From NCBI GenBank assembly GCA_963666365.2, contig CAXXNF010000002.1:1952001-2016000 (forward strand): a DNA stretch of 64,000 nucleotides, read 5' to 3'. This document shows, piece after piece, positions 44,387-63,868 of the stretch. The notes beneath the pieces were generated by a model, which saw only the letters and a list, made by a program, of their open reading frames with translations, searched no databases and was not told the origin of the DNA. Position numbers and translations under genes: made by a program. This stretch comes from Syntrophales bacterium (GTDB taxonomy: Bacteria > Desulfobacterota > Syntrophia > Syntrophales > UBA2210). Position 1 is the stretch's first letter, and every line of letters starts with the position of its first letter.

Positions 44387-45049
44387 ATGAAAGTACCCGT
44401 TGTCAAAAACATTCTCGACGCAAACGACCGGATCGCCGGAGAAAACAGGTCGCTCTTCGATTCCCACGGTCTTTATGTAATCAACCTTATGAGTTCGCCC
44501 GGGGCGGGAAAGACCACCCTGGTGGAAAAGACAATTCAGGCTCTTTGGGCACGATACCGAATCGGCGTAATTGAAGGAGATATTCAGGACACCTATGACG
44601 CCGACCGGATCGCCGCCCTCGATATTCCTGTGGTGCAGATCAACACGGGGGGCGGCTGCCATATCGACGGGAACATGGTACGAGAAGCGCTCCCCGGCCT
44701 GAATCTTGCCGAATTGGATCTCCTCATCGTAGAAAACGTGGGAAATCTGGTCTGTCCCGCCGAGTTTCGGATCGGAGAGGATGTGAAAGTCATGCTGCTC
44801 AGTACGCCTGAGGGCGCCGACAAACCGGCCAAATACCCTCTCATGTTCCACGAATCGGCAGCGCTGATCATCAACAAGACCGACCTGATCCCCTATGTAG
44901 ACTTCGATATGACAACGGCAAAGAAGGCGTCCCTGGCAATCAATCCGAAGCTTGCCATATTTGAAGTGTCCTGCAAAACCGGGGAGGGCCTCGAGAAATG
45001 GTGTGCCTGGCTCGATGCACGAATCCGAAGTGCCAGAGACGCACAATAA
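44387..45049 (+). CDS. hypB: Hydrogenase nickel incorporation GTPase
   Basis: SSPGAGKTT, GGCH, ENVGNLVCPA and NKTD. Confidence 0.95.
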   Translation: MKVPVVKNILDANDRIAGENRSLFDSHGLYVINLMSSPGAGKTTLVEKTIQALWARYRIGVIEGDIQDTYDADRIAALDIPVVQINTGGGCHIDGNMVREALPGLNLAELDLLIVENVGNLVCPAEFRIGEDVKVMLLSTPEGADKPAKYPLMFHESAALIINKTDLIPYVDFDMTTAKKASLAINPKLAIFEVSCKTGEGLEKWCAWLDARIRSARDAQ

Positions 45050-47317
45050 AATTATAAGAACCCGTTTTCTTTTTACGGGAACCGTCCAGGGGGTGGGGTT
45101 TCGTCCGTTCGTATACAGGATCGCCACAGCTCATAGACTTGCTGGTTTCGTAAGAAACAGTTCCGAAGGCGTGATTGTTGAGGTTGAAGGACCCGAAGGA
45201 AGAATGGAGGACTTCCTTTGCGACATGGACAAAACACCCCCCCCTGGCTCGAATTGACGGTGTAAAAAAGCCGGATCGCACTTCGCGGCGACGACTCCTT
45301 TCACATAATAGAAAGCGCCGCCACCGGCGTCCCGTCGGTCCATATCACTGCCGATACCGCCACCTGTGATGCCTGTCTCAAAGAACTCTTCGACCCCACC
45401 GACCGACGCTATCGCTATCCCTTCATCAATTGCACCAACTGCGGTCCCCGGCTTACCATCATCAGGGGCATCCCCTATGACCGTGAAAATACTTCCATGG
45501 CCTCTTTTCCTCTATGCCCTCGCTGCCGCAAAGAATATACTGATCCGGCAGACAGGCGTTTTCACGCAGAGCCGAACGCCTGTCCCGACTGCGGCCCCCA
45601 TCTGGAATTTCTCGACGCCCAGGGGACTCCTTGCGTAACTGCCGATCCAGTGGAAGAGGCGTTCAAGATCCTCTCTTCCGGCCGCATCCTTGCACTGAAA
45701 GGGCTGGGGGGGGTTCATCTTGCCTGCGACGCGATCAATGATGAGGCAGTAAGGCGTCTCAGAACACGTAAATTTCGAGAAGAAAAACCTCTGGCCGTGA
45801 TGGTGCAAGACAGTGCGGCCGCTGCGTCTTTCGTCGTTCTGAGCGAGCCGGAACGTATGCGTCTCCCCTCTCCGGAACGCCCCATCGTTATCGCAAGACA
45901 AAAGAGCGGCGTCCCACTTGCGCCATCAGTGGCCCCGGGAATGAACACCCTGGGAATTATGCTCCCCTATACGCCGCTCCATCATCTATTACTGGCCGGT
46001 CCTTTCAAGGCCCTCGTCATGACAAGCGGCAATCGAACCGACGAACCGATCGCGATCGAAAACGGCGAGGCCGTCACAAGGCTTGCGGGAATCGCCGATC
46101 GATTCCTTCTGCACAACCGGGACATCCTTGTCCGCTGCGACGACTCAATCGTAATGGAGATGGCAGGAAGGACAGTTATGGTAAGTCGTTCCCGAGGATT
46201 CGCGCCCCGTGCCGTCGAATTGCGGAAAGACTTCCCTCCCGTACTCGCACTGGGAGGCCATATGAAGACCACGATCTGTGTGACAAAAGACCGCTATGCC
46301 TTTTTCAGTCCCCATATAGGGGATATGGACACGCCCCAGGCGCGCGACTTCCATCGCGAAAGCATCGCACTGATGGAAAAGATTACCCGCTGCACACCCC
46401 GAATTATCGCCTGCGACTGTCATCCCGGCTACTACACCTCCCGTATGGCACACGAAATGAAGGATGTAGCGGTAGTGGAAGTCCAGCACCACCATGCCCA
46501 TATTGTGAGCTGCATGGCCGAAAGAGGGCTCACCGGACAGGTCATCGGCCTCGCCATGGACGGAACCGGCTACGGTACTGACGGCCATGTATGGGGTGGC
46601 GAATTTCTCTGTGCCGACGAAAGAAACTTCACGCGACTGGGCCATTTCACACATCTCCCCCTGCCCGGCGGAGAGGCGGCGGTGCGCGAACCCTGGAGAT
46701 GCGCCGCAAGTCTGCTGAAACACGCCTTTGGTAATGTATGGTCTGCCGTTGCGAAGCAACTGAATCCGTCCCTGCCTGAAAACGCCCTTTTGATGATCGA
46801 CCGGATGATGACAGAAGCCATCCAGTGTCCCCTCACTTCAAGCCTGGGACGGCTCTTTGAGGGCATAGCCGCGCTCATCGGTCTCCGCCAGAAGGCAAGT
46901 TTCGAGGGACAGGCGCCGATGGAGCTGGAAGCACTGGCCGAAAGGGGAAATCCCCGTCCCCTCCCCTTTGCAACGGCCGTCGAGGGGGATATCACCATAA
47001 TAGATATCGCGCCGGCAATTCGCGAGCTTGTGGCAAAGCGCACTGAAGGCTGCGAACCAGCGGATCTTGCCGCATCTTTCCTACAGATGGCAGTCGAGAT
47101 ATTTCTCGCACTGTCGCGGGAAATACGGCACAAGACAGGCCTCAACCGGGTCGTTCTGAGCGGGGGCTGTTTTCAGAACCGGAATCTGGTGGAAAGGACC
47201 GTCTCGGTTCTCGAAAAGTCGGGGTTCGATGTCTACACCCACTCACTGGTACCTCCCAATGACGGGGGGCTCGCTTTGGGACAGGCCGTTGTGGCCGCTG
47301 CAAAAGCGGAACAGTAA
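45015..47317 (+). pseudogene. hypF: Carbamoyltransferase HypF with two frameshifts (near 45240 and 45270)
   Basis: Three successive frames carry the acylphosphatase domain (GTVQGVGFRPFV), then PPLARID, then the zinc fingers (ATCDACLKE, FINCTNCGPR) plus the YrdC/Kae1 domains (QHHHAH, PPNDGG). Confidence 0.88.
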
Positions 47318-51422: not shown

Positions 51423-51466
51423 TCGTCGCCCCTCGCTTCCTTTCGAAAGGAAGCGGGGGGCGACGA
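51423..51466. terminator. Long hairpin between convergent genes (probable bidirectional terminator)
   Basis: TCGTCGCCCCTCGCTTCCTT-TCGA-AAGGAAGCGGGGGGCGACGA. Confidence 0.7.
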
Positions 51467-51494: not shown

Positions 51495-54482
51495 TCAGAA
51501 ATGGAATGCATCCCTGAAGATGAGGTATGCCAGCACTAACCCAAAAAGCGTAGCGGCGATTCCCATAATGCCGGCAAGCAGGCGAGTCCTCACGCTGGGC
51601 GCCCTGCGTATCAGCGTTTCCAGGCGATTTTCCGCAATGATCCGCTCGTACTCTTCCGGTCGTTCCTCCTTGAGCGCTGCCACACTATACCGTCCGGTAA
51701 AAATATTCGATTCCATGGGGAATTTGTTCGGCACCAGATGATTATGAAAGTAGTGGACCGTGAAAATGAAGACGGCCGCCAGGAACGCTTCCTCTGAGTG
51801 GGCAACCGTGGCCACGTTGATCATCCACCCTGGCAGGATGTAGGAGAACAACTCCGGGAACCAGAGGATAAGACCCGACATACCGATCACGAACATTCCC
51901 CAGAAAACGGCGAAGAAGTCGAACTTCTCCCAGTAGGTCCAGCGCTCGAAGCGAGGCATCTCCCCCCTGTTGAAGAACCATCGGAACATCCCCTTGAGAT
52001 CAAGCCAGTCCTTCAGGTTAAAGAAAAGTGATTCCGGCCCGAAGAGACGTCCCAGCCATCCGCGGACCCTTCCGTTCGGGAAGAGGAACTTCACGCTTCT
52101 CCAGCATGTGTATATAAAGAGCACCCACAACACAGTGGCGGCTGCGCGGTGCCAGAATCCGGCCATCTCAACCCCGCCCAGCATATTGATGAAGAATTTC
52201 GCCGTTACCGTTTCATGGTATTTAAGCGGGAAGCCAGTAATGACAAGCATAAAAAATGAGATCATCAGGAGAAAATGCATGATGCGATCTCGCCAGGAAA
52301 AACGCTGCACATAGGTAGTCATATCCCCTGAACAGGGCTCTTCCCATTCCATCAAGTGCACACCTCTGCCCGTCCATTTCTTCCAATAGGCCTTCCTCCA
52401 CCAGAGGATAGTATGCACCCAGAAAAAGGCAAACACAAAAATAAGAAGTCCGATCATGAATATATTGGTCCAGAACAATGCAGGATTGTGTTCGGGATCG
52501 CTGTAATCCGGATGAGCTTCATACTTGACGAACCGTGCATGAAATCCACTGTGGCATTGTGCGCAGTCCTTCATAAGATCGCTTTCGTGCACAGTTGATC
52601 GAGGATCCGATGAAGGCAGGATATTGTGGCCGTTATGGCAATCGGCACACCCGGCTACCCGCTCGGCAGTTCCCACGTCAAAAACCTTGCCATGAAATGT
52701 TTCGTGATACAAATCGGCCGCCGAAATTGACATGTTGTTGCGCTTTACCAGTTCCTCATCGCCGTGACAGCTGATGCACGCGACTGTGTATGCCTCCTTT
52801 TCCTGCGCGCGGCCTTCCTTGGTTCCCCTGTCATAAAACGGCGTGTCATGAAGCCCGTGACAATCGGCACAGGAAGCCGCATCCTCATTCCCCTTGAGAA
52901 CGGCGTTACCGTGTCCGTTGCGCACATAGCGGTCCTTTTCGTGACAAGCGGTACAGCGGTTGATTACCGCAGTCTTTGTTCCCCCGTCTTCCTTTTTCCG
53001 AACGTGCGCATCGCTATGACAATCAAGACAGGTTTTCCCCGCCTTGAGGGCGTGCATGTCGTTTTCATATTGCAAGGCGATATCCTTATGGCAGCTCGCA
53101 CAGGCGGTAAGACCCGGCTTCTTCTCCTTTTTCATGTGAGCCGCCACGTCATCTATCCCGGTGTGGCAGGTTGTGCAGGCAAGGATGCCGTGGACCGACT
53201 GTGCGAACCTATCGACGTATTGCGCATCGTTGTGACAGGTAGCGCATTGTATGAGGGCTTCCGCGGTTTTCTTTTCCGCCGGTACCGTCTCCCCGCCCTT
53301 CATCTCTTTTGCCATCGCCGGCTTTGCCGCCGCCTCCGTCTTTGCCGGCTTTACCATCGGCGACGGGATGACGAAATCGAACTCGTGGCACTGGTGACAA
53401 AAGTTCTCCGACGGCTTGTGGGCGTGATGGCAGAGATCGCAGTCCAGCTCGGGGCCGTAATGGGAGTTATGCGGATTGGCCTCTTTGACGTCCTTTGTCG
53501 CCTCAACGAGATCTTCGGGCTTATGACAGGTAAGGCAGTGACTCGTGCCCACGAACTTCGGGGGATCGGTCTCGCCGTGACACCCGGCGCAGGAGACCCC
53601 GCCTAAGAGGTGGCTGTGGCTCAGGGGGAGCACGCTGGTCAGCTTCGGATCGTCTTCCTTATGGCAGGCCATGCACTGGGCGAGATCCATCCCCTTCGTG
53701 TCGGGGTGCGTCCCGGGAATCATGGCCTCCTTGTGACAGGCGGCACAGTCTCCACCCCTCGCTGCTGCTGAGGGCGCCGTCTCGGGAGCGGGTGCGATTG
53801 CGGCAATCGTCTTTTCCTCAGAGGCCTTTTCCTGACCGACCGTTACAGCCGCCGGCGCAGTCTTCTTCGATTCTTCACCCTTCGAGGGCTCTTTCGCCGC
53901 AGGCGCCTCTTTCTTCGCGGGCGCTACCATCGGCGACGGGATGACGAAATCGAACTCGTGGCACTGGTGACAAAAGTTCTCCGACGGCTTGTGGGCGTGA
54001 TGGCAGAGATCGCAGTCCAGCTCGGGGCCGTAATGGGAGTTATGCGGATTGGCCTCTTTGACGTCCTTTGTCGCCTCAACGAGATCTTCGGGCTTATGAC
54101 AGGTAAGGCAGTGACTCGTGCCCACGAACTTCGGGGGATCGGTCTCGCCGTGACACCCGGCGCAGGAGACCCCGCCTAAGAGGTGGCTGTGGCTCAGGGG
54201 GAGCACGCTGGTCAGCTTCGGATCGTCTTCCTTATGGCAGGCCATGCACTGGCCGAGATCCATTCCCTTCGTGTCGGGATGCGCCTCGGGCACCATGGTA
54301 TTCCCCTCATGGCACAGTGCACATTCCCCGCCTTTTGCAGTCGGCACTGCTTCGGGTTCCGCCGAGAGTGCAGTCTTTGAATCGGCGCTGCAGAAAATGA
54401 AAAAAAGACACGCAACGAGGAAAGGGATGATGCTTCTGCGGCTCCGGATTGGAAACTCACGCATATGTGGGTTTGGCTTCAT
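51495..54482 (-). CDS. 21-heme c-type cytochrome fused to a cytochrome b domain (two 6-heme flavocytochrome-type modules + CbcL-like 9-heme/cyt b unit)
   Basis: Signal peptide; 21 CxxCH counted (6+6+9); Ala/Pro/Lys-rich linkers; TM domain with RIMH, FWHR, YWEKFDFFAVFWG, VAHSEEA and VHYFH. AGGGGG RBS before the ATG at 54482. Confidence 0.9.
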   Translation of the reverse strand: MKPNPHMREFPIRSRRSIIPFLVACLFFIFCSADSKTALSAEPEAVPTAKGGECALCHEGNTMVPEAHPDTKGMDLGQCMACHKEDDPKLTSVLPLSHSHLLGGVSCAGCHGETDPPKFVGTSHCLTCHKPEDLVEATKDVKEANPHNSHYGPELDCDLCHHAHKPSENFCHQCHEFDFVIPSPMVAPAKKEAPAAKEPSKGEESKKTAPAAVTVGQEKASEEKTIAAIAPAPETAPSAAARGGDCAACHKEAMIPGTHPDTKGMDLAQCMACHKEDDPKLTSVLPLSHSHLLGGVSCAGCHGETDPPKFVGTSHCLTCHKPEDLVEATKDVKEANPHNSHYGPELDCDLCHHAHKPSENFCHQCHEFDFVIPSPMVKPAKTEAAAKPAMAKEMKGGETVPAEKKTAEALIQCATCHNDAQYVDRFAQSVHGILACTTCHTGIDDVAAHMKKEKKPGLTACASCHKDIALQYENDMHALKAGKTCLDCHSDAHVRKKEDGGTKTAVINRCTACHEKDRYVRNGHGNAVLKGNEDAASCADCHGLHDTPFYDRGTKEGRAQEKEAYTVACISCHGDEELVKRNNMSISAADLYHETFHGKVFDVGTAERVAGCADCHNGHNILPSSDPRSTVHESDLMKDCAQCHSGFHARFVKYEAHPDYSDPEHNPALFWTNIFMIGLLIFVFAFFWVHTILWWRKAYWKKWTGRGVHLMEWEEPCSGDMTTYVQRFSWRDRIMHFLLMISFFMLVITGFPLKYHETVTAKFFINMLGGVEMAGFWHRAAATVLWVLFIYTCWRSVKFLFPNGRVRGWLGRLFGPESLFFNLKDWLDLKGMFRWFFNRGEMPRFERWTYWEKFDFFAVFWGMFVIGMSGLILWFPELFSYILPGWMINVATVAHSEEAFLAAVFIFTVHYFHNHLVPNKFPMESNIFTGRYSVAALKEERPEEYERIIAENRLETLIRRAPSVRTRLLAGIMGIAATLFGLVLAYLIFRDAFHF
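53352..54252. repeat. Intragenic direct repeat: 328 bp identical at 53352-53679 and 53925-54252 (period 573 bp)
   Basis: Compared by eye base by base; the identity breaks at 53680/54253 and the flanks diverge. Confidence 0.9.
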
Positions 54483-54626
54483 ACTTCCCCCTGATCGGAT
54501 TCGGCAGTGCAACTCGCGATACTACCCATATTAAAAACCTACCGGCTGCCGCCGCGTGGTGGCATATGTCCCTCTCCACCCCGCGACGGCTTCGGTTAAC
54601 CACACAATCAGTTGCTCTTCCCGCCG

Positions 54627-56159
54627 TTATACTTTCGCGGCGGCACTCTGGCCGGCAATGCGTCCGAAGACGATGCAATCGAGCACGGCGCAGCTTCCCA
54701 GACGCACGGCGCCGTGGACACCGCCGGTAATCTCACCGGCCGCGTAAAGTCCCGGGATGGGTTTACGATCAAGCCCGATAACCTGCGCCTTCGTATTTAT
54801 CTGAATGCCGCCCATGGTATGATGCACCTTGGGCCAGGCGCGACATCCATAGAACGGAGGCGTTACCATCGGTTTCTGGTCGGTCTGCAGATATCGGCCG
54901 AATTCCTCATCCTTGCCCTGTTTCACATACTTGTTCCACTTGTTTATCGTTTCCTTGACTGTGTCCACCGGAATCTTATATTCGGCGGCCAAGGCCTCGA
55001 TGGTGTCGAACTTCTTCGCCACGCCCTTTGCCAGGATCTTGTCGAGGATGGGAACCCGTTTGACCCCTTCACTGTCTGCAATGGTAATGGCCGGATGTCC
55101 CGTCCTGATAATGGCATCGGCACGGATCTTTCGGTCTGCCAATTCATTGATGAAGCGCTTCCCCGTTTGCGGATCCACCATGACACCATAGACAAAACCG
55201 GCTATGGCGTTGAAGACATAGCCGATGCCCATGCCTTTCTCGTCGGGACTGGTCCAGGGACCGAGCTGTATCCAGGAAATCTGCACGGGCGTCGCGCCTG
55301 ACCTGAGCGCATCCATGAGCACCTCTCCCGTTGCCCCGGGCTGATTGGTGGAATCCACATCGGCCGTCAGCTTCGGATCCTGGATCGTTCTGAAATAGAG
55401 ATCCCTGCCGAAACCGCCAGAGGCGAGCACGAGCCCCTTGTTGGCCTTCAGATATTTTACCGTGCCGGTGCTCTCATCGGGGAAGCGGTAGCCTTCTCTG
55501 ATCTTCAGGCCGGCAACCTTCCCGTCCTTATCCTGGATGATGGACATGACATAGGCCTGCATCCTCACCTCGACACCAAGGCCCTTTACCTTCTCCAGCT
55601 CCTTCATTACGATGGCCGATCCGCTGCTGTTGTAGGTCGAATAGCTGCGGGGGACCGAATGGCCGCCCAGATGGGTTACCCGGTCCTTGTACTTGACGCC
55701 CAGCATCTCCGTCCATTCCGCTGCTTCCCGCGACTTTTCCGCAATCATCCTGGCCAGATCCACATGATTGAGGTAGAGCCCGGCCTTCAACATATCCTTC
55801 AGCAGCAGTTCCGGCGAATCCTTGATCCCTTCCGCCTCCTGCTTCGGTGATCCCGCCACGGCAAAGACGCCGCCGTTGATGATGGAGTTCCCTCCGGGAA
55901 CACGCATTTTCTCAAGAACCACGGTCGAAGCGCCCGCCTGCTTCGCCTCGATGGCCGCAGCCAGACCGGCGAACCCGCTGCCGACCACCACCACATCGAA
56001 CTCCTCGTCCCATTTGGCGGGCATGTCGGCGCCATAGGCCTTAAGAGGACCGGCAAGCAGGGAACCGGCTGCCACACCGGCCAGCGCGGCGCCACCTGTG
56101 GTCTTCATGAACCCTCTTCGCGTCAAACCCTCAGCTACATTGTTTTTTTCATCTTTCAT
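54627..56159 (-). CDS. Tat-exported flavocytochrome c flavoprotein subunit 1 (no heme domain)
   Basis: TRRGFMK, VGSGFAGLAA, GGNSIINGG, GGHSVPR, KVHHTMGG and HGAVRLG. Confidence 0.92.
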   Translation of the reverse strand: MKDEKNNVAEGLTRRGFMKTTGGAALAGVAAGSLLAGPLKAYGADMPAKWDEEFDVVVVGSGFAGLAAAIEAKQAGASTVVLEKMRVPGGNSIINGGVFAVAGSPKQEAEGIKDSPELLLKDMLKAGLYLNHVDLARMIAEKSREAAEWTEMLGVKYKDRVTHLGGHSVPRSYSTYNSSGSAIVMKELEKVKGLGVEVRMQAYVMSIIQDKDGKVAGLKIREGYRFPDESTGTVKYLKANKGLVLASGGFGRDLYFRTIQDPKLTADVDSTNQPGATGEVLMDALRSGATPVQISWIQLGPWTSPDEKGMGIGYVFNAIAGFVYGVMVDPQTGKRFINELADRKIRADAIIRTGHPAITIADSEGVKRVPILDKILAKGVAKKFDTIEALAAEYKIPVDTVKETINKWNKYVKQGKDEEFGRYLQTDQKPMVTPPFYGCRAWPKVHHTMGGIQINTKAQVIGLDRKPIPGLYAAGEITGGVHGAVRLGSCAVLDCIVFGRIAGQSAAAKV

Positions 56160-56192
56160 ACCCAATCTCCTTTGTTTCTATAGTGAACACTT

Positions 56193-56226
56193 GTATTGAT
56201 TGTAAAACAATACCAATGCAAGTCAA
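56193..56226 (-). promoter_or_regulatory. Candidate internal promoter with an overlapping palindrome, upstream of flavoprotein 1
   Basis: Minus strand TTGACT-N16-TACAAT; the palindrome ATTGT-N3-ACAAT (56199-56211) overlaps the -10. Confidence 0.5.
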
Positions 56227-56456
56227 GGGCGCAGAGCCGAGTATTTTCCCTACTTTAGACGCTGAAAAGACTATTTTTTCACACTCCAAATACTGATAGG
56301 TCCTCTCCATGTGCAGCGATGCCCGCTCATCAGTGCATAGGCAGGGGCAATTCAGGCCCACACTATGCAGGGCCAATGCGATGTGCGGCAAAAAATAATC
56401 CTTTTCCGCCGCATTCCGCATCCTCATTTCAACCCAAGTCCTGTGGCGCGGCTTTT

Positions 56457-58007
56457 TTACAGGGCAGCCGCATTCTTGCCCGCAATACGTCCGAAGACCA
56501 GACAATCCACCACGGCACAACTGCCGAGGCGCACCGCTCCGTGAACGCCGCCGGCCACTTCGCCGGCCGCATAAAGCCCCTTGATCGGAGCACCGTCCAC
56601 ATCGATCACCTCTGCCTTGTCATTGATCTGCACACCGCCCATGGTATGGTGCACCTTCGGCCAGAGTCTGACGGCATAAAAGGGAGAAGTCGCAATCGGT
56701 TTGGCGTCGGGCTGGAGGAATCGTCCGAATTCCTTGTCCATTCCCGTCTTCAGATATGAGTTGTAGTCGTCGACGGTCTTTTTGACAGCCGCAAAGGGTA
56801 TTTCATAGGCCGCGGCCAGTGCCTCGAGGGTATCAAATTTTTTGACGACGCCACGCTCCAGGAGTTTTTTCACTGCACCGGGAGGACCTCCGCACTTTTT
56901 CGATCCCTCTTCGTCGGAGATACCGATCGCCGCATGACCGGTTCTGATGATGGCGTCGGCCCGAATTTTGCGATTTGCAAGCTCACTGATGAAGCGCTTT
57001 CCCGTTGCGGGATCCACCATGACACCGTAGCTGAAAACCGGACCCGTTGCGAAATGGGGCGCCAGCCCGAAGCCCTTTTCGTCAGGACTTGCCCAGGGAC
57101 CGAGCTGAATCCAGGAGGGCTGCACGGGATTCGCGCCAAGCCTGAAAAGCTCCTTGAGCCCTTCGGCGGTGGCGCCCGGCTGATTCGTGGAATTGACCTT
57201 GGCTATGAGCTTTGGATCCTGCGTCATTCTGTAGTGCACGTCCTGAGAAAATCCGCCCGTTGCCATCACAAGACCCTTCTTTGTGCGGATCGTCTTGACA
57301 GCGCCGCTCTTTTCATCGGGAAAGCGATACCCTTCCCGTATCTGGATACCGGCAATACGCCCATCCTTGTCTCTGAATATTCTTTCCAGATAGGCCTGCG
57401 TAACGATGGGCACACCCAGCTCCTTTAGTTTGGCCGCTTCCTTCATGACAATGCCCGAACCGCTGTAGTTCGAAGTGGGGCAGCTTCTAGCCACGGCATG
57501 ACCCCCCATATGGAGAAGCTGCGCCGCTTTTCCGAATTTGACGTCAAGATGCTCCTTGCACCAATTGTATGCGTCCCTGGATTGATAGGCCACCATTTTT
57601 GCCAGCTCGGGGTAGTTCAAGTACAGTCCGGCCTTCATCATGTCTTCCAGCATCAGCTCCGGAGAATCCTTAATCCCTCTCTCATCCTGCATATCGGATC
57701 CGGCCACGGCCATGACGCCACCGTTAATAATTGAATTGCCTCCATTCACGCGCATTTTCTCATAGACCGCAACCGACGCGCCCGCCTCCTTGGCCTCGAT
57801 TGCCGCGGCAAGCCCTGCAAAACCGCTGCCGATGACGGCCACATCGATTTCCTCGTCCCATTTCTGGGGCATCTCGGCGCTGAACGCCTTTGACGGACCG
57901 GCCAGCAATCCACCGGCGGCAACGCCGCCAAGGGCGACAGTGCCCGTTGTTTTGAGGAACCCTCTACGGGTCAAACCCTCATTTTTTGGTAATGTATCTT
58001 TCGCCAT
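56457..58007 (-). CDS. Tat-exported flavocytochrome c flavoprotein subunit 2 (no heme domain)
   Basis: TRRGFLK and the same FAD and active-site motifs as its paralog at 54627-56159. Confidence 0.92.
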   Translation of the reverse strand: MAKDTLPKNEGLTRRGFLKTTGTVALGGVAAGGLLAGPSKAFSAEMPQKWDEEIDVAVIGSGFAGLAAAIEAKEAGASVAVYEKMRVNGGNSIINGGVMAVAGSDMQDERGIKDSPELMLEDMMKAGLYLNYPELAKMVAYQSRDAYNWCKEHLDVKFGKAAQLLHMGGHAVARSCPTSNYSGSGIVMKEAAKLKELGVPIVTQAYLERIFRDKDGRIAGIQIREGYRFPDEKSGAVKTIRTKKGLVMATGGFSQDVHYRMTQDPKLIAKVNSTNQPGATAEGLKELFRLGANPVQPSWIQLGPWASPDEKGFGLAPHFATGPVFSYGVMVDPATGKRFISELANRKIRADAIIRTGHAAIGISDEEGSKKCGGPPGAVKKLLERGVVKKFDTLEALAAAYEIPFAAVKKTVDDYNSYLKTGMDKEFGRFLQPDAKPIATSPFYAVRLWPKVHHTMGGVQINDKAEVIDVDGAPIKGLYAAGEVAGGVHGAVRLGSCAVVDCLVFGRIAGKNAAAL

Positions 58008-58245: not shown

Positions 58246-58380
58246 AATGAATTACCCCGCCGCAAGCTACGGGGGAATTAGCCCACAGGAAATAAATCAC
58301 ATTGGGGTTTTTACTCCTCGCCCCTTGGGACATTCAATGCTTTTAAAGATACCCCGCTGCTTGCGGCGGGGCAATTCATT
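58246..58380. mobile_element. 135-bp non-autonomous element with hairpin-containing inverted ends (MITE / IS200-IS605-end-like)
   Basis: Left end AATGAATTACCCCGCCGCAAGCTACGGGG; reverse complement of the right end AATGAATTGCCCCGCCGCAAGCAGCGGGG (26/29 match). Confidence 0.65.
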
Positions 58381-58520: not shown

Positions 58521-59144
58521 TTAATGCCCTTCCTTATTGTCGTACCCAGTAATCATGGCGCTGAAATTTGCAACAACTGTGTGGCCGGTGGTGGCAAGGT
58601 AGATGTGCGCTATAAAAAACAAGCAGAAAATAGCTGCCATAATATAGTGGAACACCGCCACGGTCGCTAATCCACCGACAGACGCCACCAGGGGCTCGAA
58701 AAAGGAGGGATAGAGGTATATGATACCGCTGATCAACAGGAGCGGCATCATGATGAACATAAACATAAAATACGTTGCTTTCTGCAACGGATTAAACTTG
58801 TTGTCTTCCGACGGATTATAGGGATGGGGCCTGTTTTTGAAAATATCATACAGATAAAATCGCGCCTGCACGATCATGCCCGGATGAATATCTTCTTTTC
58901 TCATCACATAATGCGAAATCCTCTTTGAAATCAAATTATAAGCCAACCAGAAAACAAAATCGGCAACGAGCACCCATCCCAACCAGTTATGCAGTGAAAG
59001 CGCATTTGAAAAGCTTCCAAAAATATTAACGCTGTCCGGCCAGTGCATCTGGATACCTGTTAAAATAAGCAATAATATTAAAAGTGCATGAATCCAATGC
59101 CATATGCGCTCGGCGATCGGATGCAGATATATTTTCTCTGACAT
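58521..59144 (-). CDS. Di-heme cytochrome b (hydrogenase/thiosulfate reductase cytochrome b type)
   Basis: ERIWHW, LHNW, KFNPLQK, VFHY and AHIYLATTG. Confidence 0.9.
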   Translation of the reverse strand: MSEKIYLHPIAERIWHWIHALLILLLILTGIQMHWPDSVNIFGSFSNALSLHNWLGWVLVADFVFWLAYNLISKRISHYVMRKEDIHPGMIVQARFYLYDIFKNRPHPYNPSEDNKFNPLQKATYFMFMFIMMPLLLISGIIYLYPSFFEPLVASVGGLATVAVFHYIMAAIFCLFFIAHIYLATTGHTVVANFSAMITGYDNKEGH

Positions 59145-59148
59145 GTTC

Positions 59149-60912
59149 TTATTTTCTCCTCTTGCCGGTAAATCTCAATGCTCCGTGCACTGCACATCCC
59201 ACAAGCGTAAGAAGCGCCAGCAAAATTACAACGACGTCGAGAGCCGGAATTCTATTGCTGCCCACCACATAATTCCCTTTTTCAATAAGCCCGGCGTTGG
59301 TAAATTTCCAATTGGCCAGCGAATAATCCGGTTTTCCTTCAGCCTCTTTCAAGAGAATCGTGTTGTATGTATGACAAAGCTGACAATCGTCAACGGGAGC
59401 TGCCATTGAAGGATCGTGACATACGAGACAATCGGTTTTTTTCAGGTGAAGCTTCGGCTGTTCCAGCCAGTTATGCCGCACGGATGGAGCGGGCTTTAAC
59501 GTAACGAACACATCTTTGTTTGCATCGATTTCCCACGATTCGGCAGCATCCTTTTCCGTCAGAAACAGTTCATCCTTTCCGTGACAGGAAAGGCACGTTT
59601 CGTTTTGTGGGGTCTTCAGTTGAATGCTATGCGGCGTTGCATATTTCCATGTTTGCACTTTGCCCACTTCAGTCAGGGCGTCCTTCACGTAAAAATCAAA
59701 GAGATCCGGACTTACGGGAATATGTCGAACCGTCACATATTGCTCAGGCCGGTCTTCGCTCATTTTCGGATTCATTCCGATTTTGAAGCCCACCTTTGAC
59801 GGCTTTGTTTTAAAATAGGGAGCACCTGATGCGTCTTTACCCACATGACAACTATAACAGTGTTTATAAGGCATCGCGTGACATACTTGACAACTCACCT
59901 TGTCTTTGTGAATCATATGGCTCGGATGTACACGCTCTTTCGCTTCACTTTCGTCTTGCGCCGCTTCATCTTCAGAACCTGCCAATTTATGACACTTTTC
60001 GCACCTTGACCCGTCTGCAACGTCATATCTGTCAAAGGTCTCATGGCTCATGCCGTTTCCGTGCATTTCATCACCGGAATGGCAATCCATACATGACATA
60101 CATTTATCAATACGGTGCACATCACCCTGCACACCCTTATTCTGGCCGTAGAATTCCTTGCCTACCCTGCTTCCGTGACAGGAGGTGCAATTTGTTTCAA
60201 CAGGAGGAGTTTTCTGAAAAATGTGGCCTTCTACGAATCCGCCTTCGACGGAATTGGGACGGCTTACGTGACATTGACCGCAACTGCTGTGACACTTCAT
60301 ACAGTGCGTTTCCATGGCGCAGTCTATTTTTTCACGTACCGATGGATCCGCATTTGCCCTTAGATAAATTTTGTTTTTAAACGGGGCAAGCGTTACATGC
60401 AGATTTGTTTTGTTTTTTTCTGCAATTTCCGGATGTCCCTCTTCATCGTCTACGAAGTGGCACTCGCCGCACTTCTGCACAGGATCGGGATAGGAAGGAT
60501 CTCTCATCAGACCTTCATGTGCCGTCTCATAATCATCGCTTTCAGGATCGCCACCATGGCACTGTTCACAGGATATCTGCCCATGGACATCATCGTCGAT
60601 GAAATCAGAGTCAACCAGCACTTTTTCGTATGGCTCCAACTGAGCCACAGCTCCGCCTCACCCTTCGCCTTCCGATTCAGCGGACTTTTTCTGCTGAGGA
60701 TTTTTCGCTGCAATCTCTTTTGTAATTCTTACCAGCTCTTTCACACTTGTATGGCATGAGACGCAGCCGCTTTCCTCGGCACTAACCATCTGCCCCGCAC
60801 CAAGAAAAACAACAACAAAGATGGCAGCAACAATAACAAAAAGTTCTGACGTGTACCGCGCACACATTATTTTGTGTGCAGAAACCCCTCTGTAAACAAT
60901 GCGTTCTTTCAT
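59149..60912 (-). CDS. 13-heme c-type cytochrome with an in-frame UGA (60658-60660); probable selenoprotein
   Basis: The 84-aa ORF (signal peptide, 1 CxxCH) and the 499-aa ORF (12 CxxCH, C-terminal TM, no signal peptide) are in-frame through SEGEG-U-GGAVAQLEPYEK. Confidence 0.82.
60629..60649 (-). promoter_or_regulatory. SECIS-like hairpin after the cytochrome UGA
   Basis: mRNA UGUGGCUC-AGUUG-GAGCCAUA; the loop starts 16 nt 3' of the UGA and has G-U at loop positions 2-3. Confidence 0.72.
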
Positions 60913-61703: not shown

Positions 61704-62546
61704 TTACATGTAACTGTGCAAACCCGAAAGTATGTAATTTACCCCGAGATAAGTAAAAATCACGGCAAAAAAACCGAGAATGGCAATACAGGCCATGATG
61801 GTTCCCTTCCATCCCTTTACCAGGCGGGCGTGGAGATAGGCGCCGTAAATCATCCAGGTGATGAGCGACCAGGTCTCTTTCGGATCCCACCCCCAATACC
61901 TTCCCCAGGCAGTATCGGCCCAGGCTGCACCAGTAATTATTCCCAGACTCAGTAAAACAAAACCGATTGAGGTTATTCGATAGGCCAGATCGTCCCACAT
62001 CGCGGCATCCGCGAGAAGTGCCGTAATTCTCGGTCCTCCCTTCACTCTGATCAAATAGAGTATGCTGGTGATGAACGAAAGAGCAAAACAGGCATAGGCA
62101 AGAAAGGAACTCACCACGTGACTGATGAGCCAATTACTTCTTAATGCGGGTATAAGAGGCTGAATTTCCGTGCTCACACTGCCGGAAAGCGACGCATAGG
62201 CCGGCAGCAAAAAGGCCAGGAAGGATGCCAGTATTCCGATACTTTCATTACCGTAACGTCTCCACATTATCAGCAATACGAGCATTACTGACCAGGAAAA
62301 AAAGACGAGCGATTCGTAGAGATTGGAAAGAGGTGCATGCCCGATTTCCAGTTGATACGAAATTGCCCAGCGCAGAATAATCGCAAACGTTTCTATGGAA
62401 AATCCGCTTGCCACCAGGATCAGTGCCAATACACGGATGACCTTTTTTTTAAAAACAAAGGCAGTAAAGAAGAAAAGAGTTCCAAAAAAATAAAGAAATG
62501 TTGCAATACTTACAAAAAATGTATCGTTCATACCAGTATCAATCAT
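61704..62546 (-). CDS. resC: System II cytochrome c biogenesis protein (ResC/CcsA type, WWD domain)
   Basis: HAPLSNLYES, WADTAWGRYWGWDPKETW and SGLHSY. Confidence 0.93.
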   Translation of the reverse strand: MIDTGMNDTFFVSIATFLYFFGTLFFFTAFVFKKKVIRVLALILVASGFSIETFAIILRWAISYQLEIGHAPLSNLYESLVFFSWSVMLVLLIMWRRYGNESIGILASFLAFLLPAYASLSGSVSTEIQPLIPALRSNWLISHVVSSFLAYACFALSFITSILYLIRVKGGPRITALLADAAMWDDLAYRITSIGFVLLSLGIITGAAWADTAWGRYWGWDPKETWSLITWMIYGAYLHARLVKGWKGTIMACIAILGFFAVIFTYLGVNYILSGLHSYM

Positions 62547-63868
62547 TGTTGTAGTTTATTAAGATGCTTTGCAAGAATTTTCTCGAAGTTGCCGTCGCGT
62601 TTTCTGTCTGTTTTCGCTGCAACTTCAACATATGATCCTTCGCCGGACGGCGTAATCCGTATCGACAGACACCGGTGCGACCCAAAGAGCACAATTACAA
62701 AACCGATGAGAATCAGGGCAAACCCACTCCATACCACGGGCATTCCCGGATTTTTGCTTATCTGTATGCCCGTGTAGTAGCGAGCGGTAAAATCTTCCAG
62801 TGCAAAGATATACTCTCCCCGTTCTACTTCCTGAGACCGGTGCCTCTGAAATGGTATCCAGAAAATATCGTGACTCATCCCCGGCACAAGCATCACACCC
62901 AATACTGCCGCCCCCTGTCCTTGAAAATCCGGCACAAACCGTGCAACGGCAAAGGAAGAGTCGCTTCCCGGCAATGGCACTTTTCGCATCCGATGGAGTG
63001 TAAGCACCGATCTGGTGCCGCTTTTCTTTTCCGTAACGGCGACTTTGAAATCGGAAGCATCGGCCATTCCATATGAAGCCTGACATAGTTTGTATCCCCG
63101 AAAGACAATGGGATGATTTACTCGTATCGATTCCTCCGCCACAGACGCACCCTCATCAATGATCGTTACATCGGATCGGTATTCTTTCGGCATACCACTG
63201 TCGTAAAATTCAACGGAAAAACGATTGCATCGTACCGAAAAGGGCAGCGTCATTTCTTTGGTTCCCGGAGAAACAAGAACCTTGCTCGAGGTTTCTCCCT
63301 CGACAATCGTCATTTGGCCTTCAAAACCGCCGACTGCACCTATGAGACCGCCGGCCAGAATTATCAGAATGCTCACATGAACGAACAGGATACCAAGCCG
63401 CGCATAGGCACCTTTTTCCGCATAAAGGTATCGCACGTCACGCTCACCTTTCACATTCGGCTTCCCGACAAGCGCTTTTACCAACATTCGCAGATTGCCT
63501 TCTATGCGTTCCCCTCTATCGTGCATTTCGAACTTATGTTGTATCGGCCACCCGCAAAAGGCCGCATCGCTCTTATCACCCCGCTTCCGAAACAGCGGGG
63601 CGCAAATTCCCGGAAGCGTTTTCGCCGTACAGGCAATGAGGTTAACTGCCAAAAGCGCCAGGAGAACGGTGAACCACCAGGAATGGTACATGTCTGAAAT
63701 ATCGAAAAACTCAATAAGAGAAACCGTACCCGGTCCATAGACATTCTCATAGTGGTCCTTTGGGAGCCCCTGTGCTACCAAAGTGCCGAACACGGAGGTT
63801 GCGGCCAGCGCAAAAAAAAGGAATATGGTAAGTTTTGCCGAAGCAAGTCCCTTGATAACTTTTTTCAT
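62543..63868 (-). CDS. resB: System II cytochrome c biogenesis protein (ResB type)
   Basis: SVFGTLVAQ, MYHSWWF, VHVSIL, IRVNHP and YTGIQISKNPG. Confidence 0.92.
   Translation of the reverse strand: MKKVIKGLASAKLTIFLFFALAATSVFGTLVAQGLPKDHYENVYGPGTVSLIEFFDISDMYHSWWFTVLLALLAVNLIACTAKTLPGICAPLFRKRGDKSDAAFCGWPIQHKFEMHDRGERIEGNLRMLVKALVGKPNVKGERDVRYLYAEKGAYARLGILFVHVSILIILAGGLIGAVGGFEGQMTIVEGETSSKVLVSPGTKEMTLPFSVRCNRFSVEFYDSGMPKEYRSDVTIIDEGASVAEESIRVNHPIVFRGYKLCQASYGMADASDFKVAVTEKKSGTRSVLTLHRMRKVPLPGSDSSFAVARFVPDFQGQGAAVLGVMLVPGMSHDIFWIPFQRHRSQEVERGEYIFALEDFTARYYTGIQISKNPGMPVVWSGFALILIGFVIVLFGSHRCLSIRITPSGEGSYVEVAAKTDRKRDGNFEKILAKHLNKLQQ

Follow-up and report, generated by a model that had tools for sequence, protein, structure and literature searches.

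Why does a single cytochrome chain carry two nearly identical hexaheme arms directly downstream of two flavoprotein genes, and does each arm serve one flavoprotein? The question is raised by a gene in a 64,000-nucleotide (nt) stretch of a Syntrophales bacterium genome (assembly GCA_963666365.2, contig CAXXNF010000002.1, positions 1,952,001 to 2,016,000 of the forward strand), here called the window. The gene lies at 51495..54512 on the minus strand; its product, the fusion protein, consists of a signal peptide, hexaheme arm A, a linker, hexaheme arm B, a second linker, a CbcL-type nine-heme domain and a cytochrome b domain. The reading favoured here, at a probability of roughly 60%, is a CbcL-type quinol dehydrogenase with a tethered reductase adaptor: the arms would be interchangeable and serve several flavoproteins, and would derive from an old duplication followed by gene conversion.

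The fusion gene is one unbroken frame of 1005 codons counted from a TTG; its start is probably an ATG at 54482 or 54464, and the database call (P0124) has 989 amino acids (aa) and starts at M17. The parts of the protein listed next are all encoded on the minus strand. A Sec signal peptide, assigned by eye and hydropathy only, is followed by arm A (53928..54332, aa 61-195), in which two extra N-terminal hemes precede an Fcc3-like tetraheme domain, and by linker 1 (53763..53927). Arm B (53355..53756, aa 253-386) is 93% identical to arm A, and linker 2 (53253..53354; 34 aa, 71% Ala/Pro/Lys/Glu) joins it to the nine-heme domain (52503..53252) and the cytochrome b domain (51498..52475). The 21 CxxCH motifs fall at aa 64-181 (6), 256-372 (6) and 423-650 (9). 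The original prediction had described just such a polypeptide, with signal peptide, 6+6+9 hemes, linkers and cytochrome b, and the open frame, motif count and composition bear it out. Linker 1 is 55 aa of unique sequence, also 71% Ala/Pro/Lys/Glu, has its own contig in the reads and is modelled as coil with a predicted local distance difference test (pLDDT) score below 50. It is probably disordered. The low linker pLDDT is weak evidence of this because the arm models are too poor as well, with no resolvable arm-core contacts: AlphaFold gives the arm alone a pLDDT of 60, and arm A within the whole-chain model stays below 50.

Several features support a CbcL-like core made of the nine-heme and cytochrome b domains. 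The nine-heme motifs are spaced 23,25,24,25,28,31,43,28, against 23,25,23,24,29,28,43,28 in GSU0274, the CbcL of Geobacter sulfurreducens; the differences are 0-3 residues, in a comparison of motif positions from Table S2 of PMC6295460 rather than a full-sequence alignment. The non-motif histidines of this domain are kept in 109-119 of 119 homologues. Six hydrophobic segments at aa 684-999 (threshold 1.1) correspond to six long membrane helices with a confident core in the structure model, and membrane histidines 746, 788, 905 and 920 (also 700 and 925) are invariant in 119/119 homologues. With the core model, the sole Foldseek match below E 0.001 was FdnI (1kqf_C, E 6e-4, template-modelling score 0.71 on the target). 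Nine near-identically spaced c-hemes, six membrane helices and an FdnI-like cytochrome b are thus shared with CbcL, the architecture the original prediction had recognised. The electron acceptor side differs: Geobacter CbcL hands electrons to the free triheme protein PpcA for metal reduction (reduction of PpcA: PMC9129911, available text), whereas the fusion protein has a tethered, doubled flavocytochrome c partner domain beside flavoprotein genes. The same genome also encodes a second CbcL, without arms and 51% identical (G000:C2:600060-604422, L002:6058-10261), beside a rhodanese-like gene and a 7-heme gene, and has a further 9-heme frame at C1:397066-399351.

The arms point to a different kind of partner. 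Each contains the motif NPHNSH..CDLCHHAH..SENFCHQCH, and PF14537 matches the fusion protein twice, once per arm. Residues 57-132 of module A, covering the last four arm hemes, resemble the tetraheme domain found at the N-terminus of Shewanella Fcc3 (E 8e-7), as had been read from the Fcc3/small tetraheme pattern at the end of both modules. The last part of each arm also gives a weak match to the NCBIfam model Cgr1 (E 3e-7, far below cut-off).

Directly upstream and in the same orientation lie two flavoprotein genes, fp1 (56457..58007, minus strand; 516 aa) and fp2 (54627..56165, minus strand; 512 aa, with a probable ATG at 56159), whose products are 65% identical. Both pass the flavocytochrome c model TIGR01813 (cut-off 285; 451 bits for fp1, 487 for fp2), contain zero CxxCH motifs and have a TRRxF motif of twin-arginine translocation (Tat); the next gene upstream of fp1 encodes a cytochrome b561. 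The prediction of exactly two heme-less Tat flavoproteins directly upstream holds locally. The best PDB match of fp1 is urocanate reductase (E 4e-76), and both proteins match the catalytic part of Shewanella Fcc3/FccA (E 5e-68). Compared with FccA, the fumarate-site HPT is GPW in both (His to Gly; fp1 has a QLGPW-type active site), and the Glu and Arg positions are Gly and Phe in fp1. The Arg proton donor, the HHTMGG His and the RLG Arg are retained in both. The roles assigned here to these residues agree with the statements in PMC4427408. A fumarate reductase identity was rejected on the replaced C1-carboxyl-binding His (and Glu/Arg in fp1). The active-site residues suggest instead that the two proteins reduce the C=C bond of alpha,beta-unsaturated monocarboxylates other than fumarate. 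The same His-to-Gly change occurs in ArdA, a one-way acrylate reductase that requires its cytochrome (bioRxiv 2024.02.11.579808). The substrate loops of fp1 (GFGLAPHFATGPVFSYG) and fp2 (GMGIGYVFNAIAGFVYG) are unlike each other; because they differ and each is conserved separately, the substrates are likely to be different 2-enoates. A third Tat flavoprotein in the genome is distantly related to fp1 and fp2 and adjoins no cytochrome; its orthologues (80% and 84%) stand beside one-arm fusions in L025 and L027. At G000:C2:1382240-1385539 (L001:8238-11558), two more heme-less flavocytochrome c flavoproteins, one with a Tat motif (the genome total being three) and one without a signal peptide, lie behind a PAS/LuxR-like regulator with no adjoining cytochrome.

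Electrons could in principle run the other way, with the flavoproteins acting as periplasmic dehydrogenases and the CbcL-like core reducing quinone. The CbcL/MtrH/MtoC family occurs in metal reducers and Fe(II) oxidisers alike (PMC6295460, available text), which would allow this. Divergent Tat flavoproteins (35-38% to fp1) also lie directly before one-arm fusions at L038:6024-7535, L040:5609-7207, L116:6066-7679 and L118:6151-7662; they have AILGTYG and AAYMT in place of the HHTMGG and RLG residues, and may perform different chemistry, possibly oxidation. Inward flow is nonetheless very improbable at the present locus, where fp1 and fp2 keep the reductase residues and published work on the related ArdAB presents it as reducing in one direction only.

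A perfect repeat, read from contigs rather than raw long reads, raises the possibility that the second arm is an assembly artefact. Arms A and B differ only within their first ~30 residues; a tract of 328 nt at 53925..54252 is identical to 53352..53679 (offset 573 nt), spans hemes 2-6 including the Fcc3-like docking half of both arms, and is probably a gene-conversion tract. In the contigs of run X1, which may be the source sample and were used here in place of raw long reads, depth is 7.3 over the left flank, 6.6 over the unique linker (0 differences), 12.9 over a single repeat contig exactly 328 nt long and 8.5 over the right flank. The unique linker is near flank depth and the repeat at about twice that depth, so most of the population truly carries two copies of the repeat. 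Run X2 is of the same sample as X1, and the arms are uncovered in X3 and X4. Two further records are also two-armed. P0125, from a second assembly of a near-identical strain, contains the two arms, with a frameshift close to where arm B ends; P0129, a partial protein of a sister species (source name Syntrophales bacterium), begins with a 42-residue arm tail and continues through a linker and one complete arm into the core. The linker also carries a diverged heme-1 segment, which errors of collapse or duplication would not be expected to produce. An artefact was rejected on the contig depths together with P0125 and P0129, and its probability is negligible.

The age of the repeat is a separate matter. 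A simple recent tandem duplication was rejected: only 328 of the 573-nt unit are identical, and in the rest the heme-1 segment has diverged strongly. In the region around heme 1, 15/23 residues are the same in both arms, with an indel, and 7/17 shared codons differ synonymously; arm A and the one-arm protein P0004 share 22/24 residues there, although their cores are 79% identical. A one-residue deletion is common to arm B and P0129, the A-B spacing is 75 here versus 76 in P0129, and P0129 has its own homogenised arm pair. In a module tree A, B and P0004 group together (96/86) with P0129 apart, a pattern expected from gene conversion or from two independent duplications alike. An older duplication followed by gene conversion appears to explain the arm pair best.

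Two full arms are rare. Among 401 proteins compared, they occur only in this organism's own records, plus the partial P0129. No further two-arm protein appeared among 120 + 28 + 120 listed homologues (each set of 120 drawn from the top ~8000 scored candidates), 150 listed representatives and 159 loci. P0129 is identical over 761 aa to the one-arm P0008, encoded in the same-genus genome G001; the P0129 linker was looked for in G001 and was not found, so that P0008 either lost an arm by deletion or comes from an assembly that merged two arms into one. P0129 itself came from a cluster listing, and representative sequences can therefore hide the two-arm form. A two-arm gene probably collapses to one arm by recombination at times.

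This raises the alternative that the doubling is a nearly neutral expansion, in which a second arm gained and lost by repeat recombination adds little. The dominance of one-arm forms fits it, as do P0004 and P0008, which read as products with an A start and a B end. It is nevertheless an unlikely account: in two species both arms stay in frame and equally spaced, 12/12 heme motifs are intact, and the diverged N-termini suggest that the pair has lasted long although the 328-nt repeat offers a target for deletion. Tandem free hexahemes also recur in other lineages.

The partner family of the arms emerges from gene order. A search with an 11-sequence profile yielded 79 loci from genomes and 80 from metagenomes (best 80 of 107 and best 80 of 219); these 159 loci are redundant rather than independent and show a pattern, not a statistic. 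A six-heme module was present in 147 of them and absent from 12. A flavoprotein stands directly upstream of the hexaheme in 125 of the 147, the hexaheme being free in 108 and fused in 17; 15 have no upstream DNA and 7 have no flavoprotein there, which makes 125/132 informative loci. The hexaheme is mostly a free gene and is widespread. Both flavoprotein types precede free hexahemes elsewhere, the fp2 type (76-80%) in L039, L042 and L043 and the fp1 type (77-78%) in L045, L047 and L123. Flavoprotein, free hexaheme and a separate CbcL share one cluster at nine loci (L045, L047, L048, L055, L057, L059, L060, L128 and L129). These arrangements support the view that the arms belong to a family of cytochromes that partner heme-less flavocytochrome c flavoproteins. 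P0194 combines this Fcc3-like tetraheme domain with a NapC/NirT domain in one chain, by its sequence an independent join of the same adaptor to a quinol dehydrogenase; P0265 is weakly similar in this respect.

One-arm fusions form a family of their own at the top of the homologue list, in 15-heme (~790-830 aa) and 19-heme (6+4+9, ~900-930 aa) versions. Strong arm matches in the clade were found in 5/60 related genomes (G001, G003, G016, G017 and G020), besides the 19-heme G056. The free hexahemes of L039, L042 and L043 nest among fused arms in the module tree, with low support on most of those branches; the nesting hints at secondary splitting.

Structure prediction also bears on docking. The predicted complex of fp2 with arm A has an interaction prediction score from aligned errors (ipSAE) of 0.53, against 0.00 for the best of 3 controls; the runs agree in at least 96% of contacts, and partner pLDDT is at least 77. 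The ipSAE mark is reached by 116/157 solved pairs and 2/215 mismatches; at scores up to 0.60, only 18/157 solved pairs are found together with both mismatches. Complex prediction of each module with each flavoprotein, proposed in the original prediction, was run on this pair only, where the pass lends weak support to docking and may reflect likeness to the solved Fcc3.

The same docking halves bear on the question of one arm per flavoprotein. The original prediction had assigned each arm to one catalytic subunit. Two arms and two upstream genes do coincide here, an identical fp1-fp2 arrangement recurs in the sister species (L023), which also has a two-arm record (P0129), the arms differ around heme 1, and second arms elsewhere could be hidden by short-read collapse. 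Dedicated arms are still quite improbable. Over hemes 2-6, the Fcc3-like half included, the two arms do not differ in a single nucleotide, and arms with identical docking halves would be unable to choose between flavoproteins, of which this genome has three with Tat signals. The expectation that module number tracks flavoprotein number also failed. At 13 distinct one-arm fusion loci, two flavoproteins lie upstream in 6 (including L036, which may be a collapsed two-arm gene), one in 6 (one of these near a contig edge) and none in 1; the partial L041, with two upstream flavoproteins, fell out of this count via the core threshold. L025 is a one-arm fusion on a 2.79-Mb contig with no internal repeat, two upstream flavoproteins and three surrounding ones; in L023, three flavoproteins surround the gene. 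Eight loci show the reverse, two free hexahemes behind one flavoprotein, the tandem pairs being 45-61% identical. One arm per flavoprotein was rejected by these neighbour counts. This genome has no hexaheme domain besides the two arms, and no more than six of its frames have at least three heme motifs. Identical docking halves and three client flavoproteins argue instead for a shared hub.

A further alternative has electrons pass from the core through B to A, so that the arms lengthen the wire or store electrons and only one of them docks a flavoprotein. The linear order along the chain suits such a wire, and in 19-heme relatives four additional CbcL-like hemes separate the arm from the core. 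A 55-residue low-complexity linker between the arms and a full docking half in both speak against it, and the arrangement has little chance of being correct.

The favoured reading, a quinol dehydrogenase with a tethered adaptor, would work as follows. The cytochrome b domain would oxidise quinol, as its family suggests, and the nine hemes would carry the electrons to the periplasmic side, by analogy with CbcL. A tethered hexaheme arm would take electrons from the nine-heme domain, and its Fcc3-like tetraheme half would dock on a Tat-exported, heme-less flavin adenine dinucleotide (FAD) protein. Homology, gene order and the weak complex prediction suggest that the flavocytochrome c of Shewanella, a single chain, may be rebuilt here in trans. 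With two interchangeable arms, the protein would have twice the room for docking from a pool of three or more Tat flavoproteins.

Several points weigh against this reading. The complex score is weak, and the prediction covers fp2 only. Flow direction is unreadable from sequence, the available text of PMC6295460 giving no feature that separates quinol-oxidising from quinone-reducing family members. Among proteins of menaquinone synthesis, MqnA/D had no match in the genome, which is 94% complete, and the best MenB-like match reached 319 bits, under the 342.7 cut-off; at that completeness another partner cytochrome could also be missing. Around the 19-heme fusion L061, no flavoprotein lies within 8 kb. 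Some one-arm records are possibly collapsed two-arm genes, as the identity of P0008 and P0129 illustrates, which weakens the neighbour count.

The surroundings of the locus hold other features. A 20-bp hairpin (51423..51466), between the fusion gene and a converging kinase-like gene, is a probable terminator. In the fp1-fp2 spacer, a sigma-70-like promoter match (56199..56226, minus strand) agrees at 10/12 positions, and fp2 may be transcribed separately from fp1; such sites number 7, against 4.2 +/- 2.3 in shuffled sequence, a weak excess. Upstream of fp1, at 58246-58380, a 29-nt inverted repeat (90% complementary, 77 nt apart) has four partial copies elsewhere in the genome and is possibly a small mobile-element remnant. 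Farther upstream (59149-60912 and 58521-59144, minus strand), an 84-aa open reading frame (ORF) ends at an in-frame TGA (60658-60660, EGEG-TGA-GGAV), with readthrough into a 12-heme gene. The readthrough product would be a 587-aa 13-heme protein, and the genome has tRNA-Sec; its sequence makes a selenocysteine cytochrome with a cytochrome b561 partner probable, a pair resembling ExtKL. In L117, too, the flavoproteins follow a 12-heme gene of similar type. Cytochrome c maturation genes of the ResB/ResC type lie near the fusion locus (61704-63868, minus strand), and similar-looking ones, judged from their N-termini only, flank the fusion in L023-L026. At 44952-47317 (plus strand), a gene of what is presumably a hydrogenase maturation cluster, hypF-like by its motifs, is split into ORFs 44952-45257 and 45497-47317, which suggests a frameshift or sequence error.

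Known systems share parts of this arrangement. In Mrd/Mcc (PMC4427408, available text) and ArdAB (bioRxiv 2024.02.11.579808, available text), the gene of a Tat heme-less FAD subunit is followed by that of a Sec-exported cytochrome, and the fumarate C1-binding His is lost (Gly in ArdA) with the other catalytic His/Arg kept, as far as published residue statements allow comparison. The difference lies in the cytochrome: Mcc is a free 7-heme protein and ArdB a separate heme c subunit, whereas the six-heme partner here is fused, twice, to a CbcL-type membrane protein. Shewanella Fcc3/FccA has its tetraheme domain fused to the flavoprotein and is fed by CymA, whereas here the tetraheme domain is fused to the electron source; its fumarate-specific His and Arg are absent from the flavoproteins here. 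Cgr1/Cgr2 of Eggerthella lenta and, presumably, Wolinella FccABC are other close systems. In the available text of PMC5953540, the membrane-anchored PF14537 cytochrome Cgr1 is put forward as a route for electrons between the quinone pool and a Tat flavoprotein; Cgr1 is NapC/NirT(NrfH)-like and ~200 aa long, without a cytochrome b or CbcL domain and without doubling.

The literature search found no description of the fusion or of a CbcL-flavoprotein link, subscription papers and bioRxiv supplements being largely outside its reach. In their available texts, accounts of modular fusion, cytochrome surveys and reductase arsenals report no such fusion (bioRxiv 2025.05.29.656830, PMC11492766, PMC13685792, bioRxiv 2022.12.26.521950), and the last holds nothing on cytochrome partners. 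The CbcL/MtrH/MtoC family is described with 3-23 heme motifs (PMC6295460), in a paper whose available text mentions flavoproteins nowhere. Its Table S2 holds, without interpretation, two 925-aa 19-heme Syntrophus proteins whose first six motifs are spaced 25,28,18,33,14, versus 25,28,18,32,14 in the arms here, and no row with two such arms. The original suggestion that no fusion of this kind had been described accordingly stands for the two-arm form as far as the search reached, while those two one-arm proteins were already on record. Two known kinds of protein, CbcL and the cytochrome partner of a split flavocytochrome c, are joined; the family-wide fusion is the more useful finding, and the doubling is a genus-level addition.

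The fusion bears on several wider points. Heme counts in short-read catalogues are perhaps too low, because near-identical arms can vanish from short-read assemblies. The two-arm protein also lends itself to testing whether a cytochrome on a tether acts as a swinging shuttle. Syntrophales and their relatives are mostly seen as fermenters dependent on partners. A 2026 survey of Smithellaceae describes terminal acceptors as sparse (PMC13685792, available text). CbcL is known from metal and electrode reduction; the fusion points to a second job in syntroph lineages, that of feeding respiration with organic acceptors. According to PMC4427408 (available text), it is not known what carries electrons from menaquinone to Mcc, and the fusion offers a testable candidate class for this carrier. 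Tentatively, and at less than even odds, Syntrophales and their relatives may possess an unrecognised respiratory branch running from CbcL through a hexaheme adaptor to exchangeable periplasmic flavin reductases for organic acceptors; in this genus, the adaptor, doubled and held identical through gene conversion, would be a two-socket hub loading two subunits simultaneously, and CbcL would be the missing quinol-to-cytochrome link of Mrd/Mcc-type systems.

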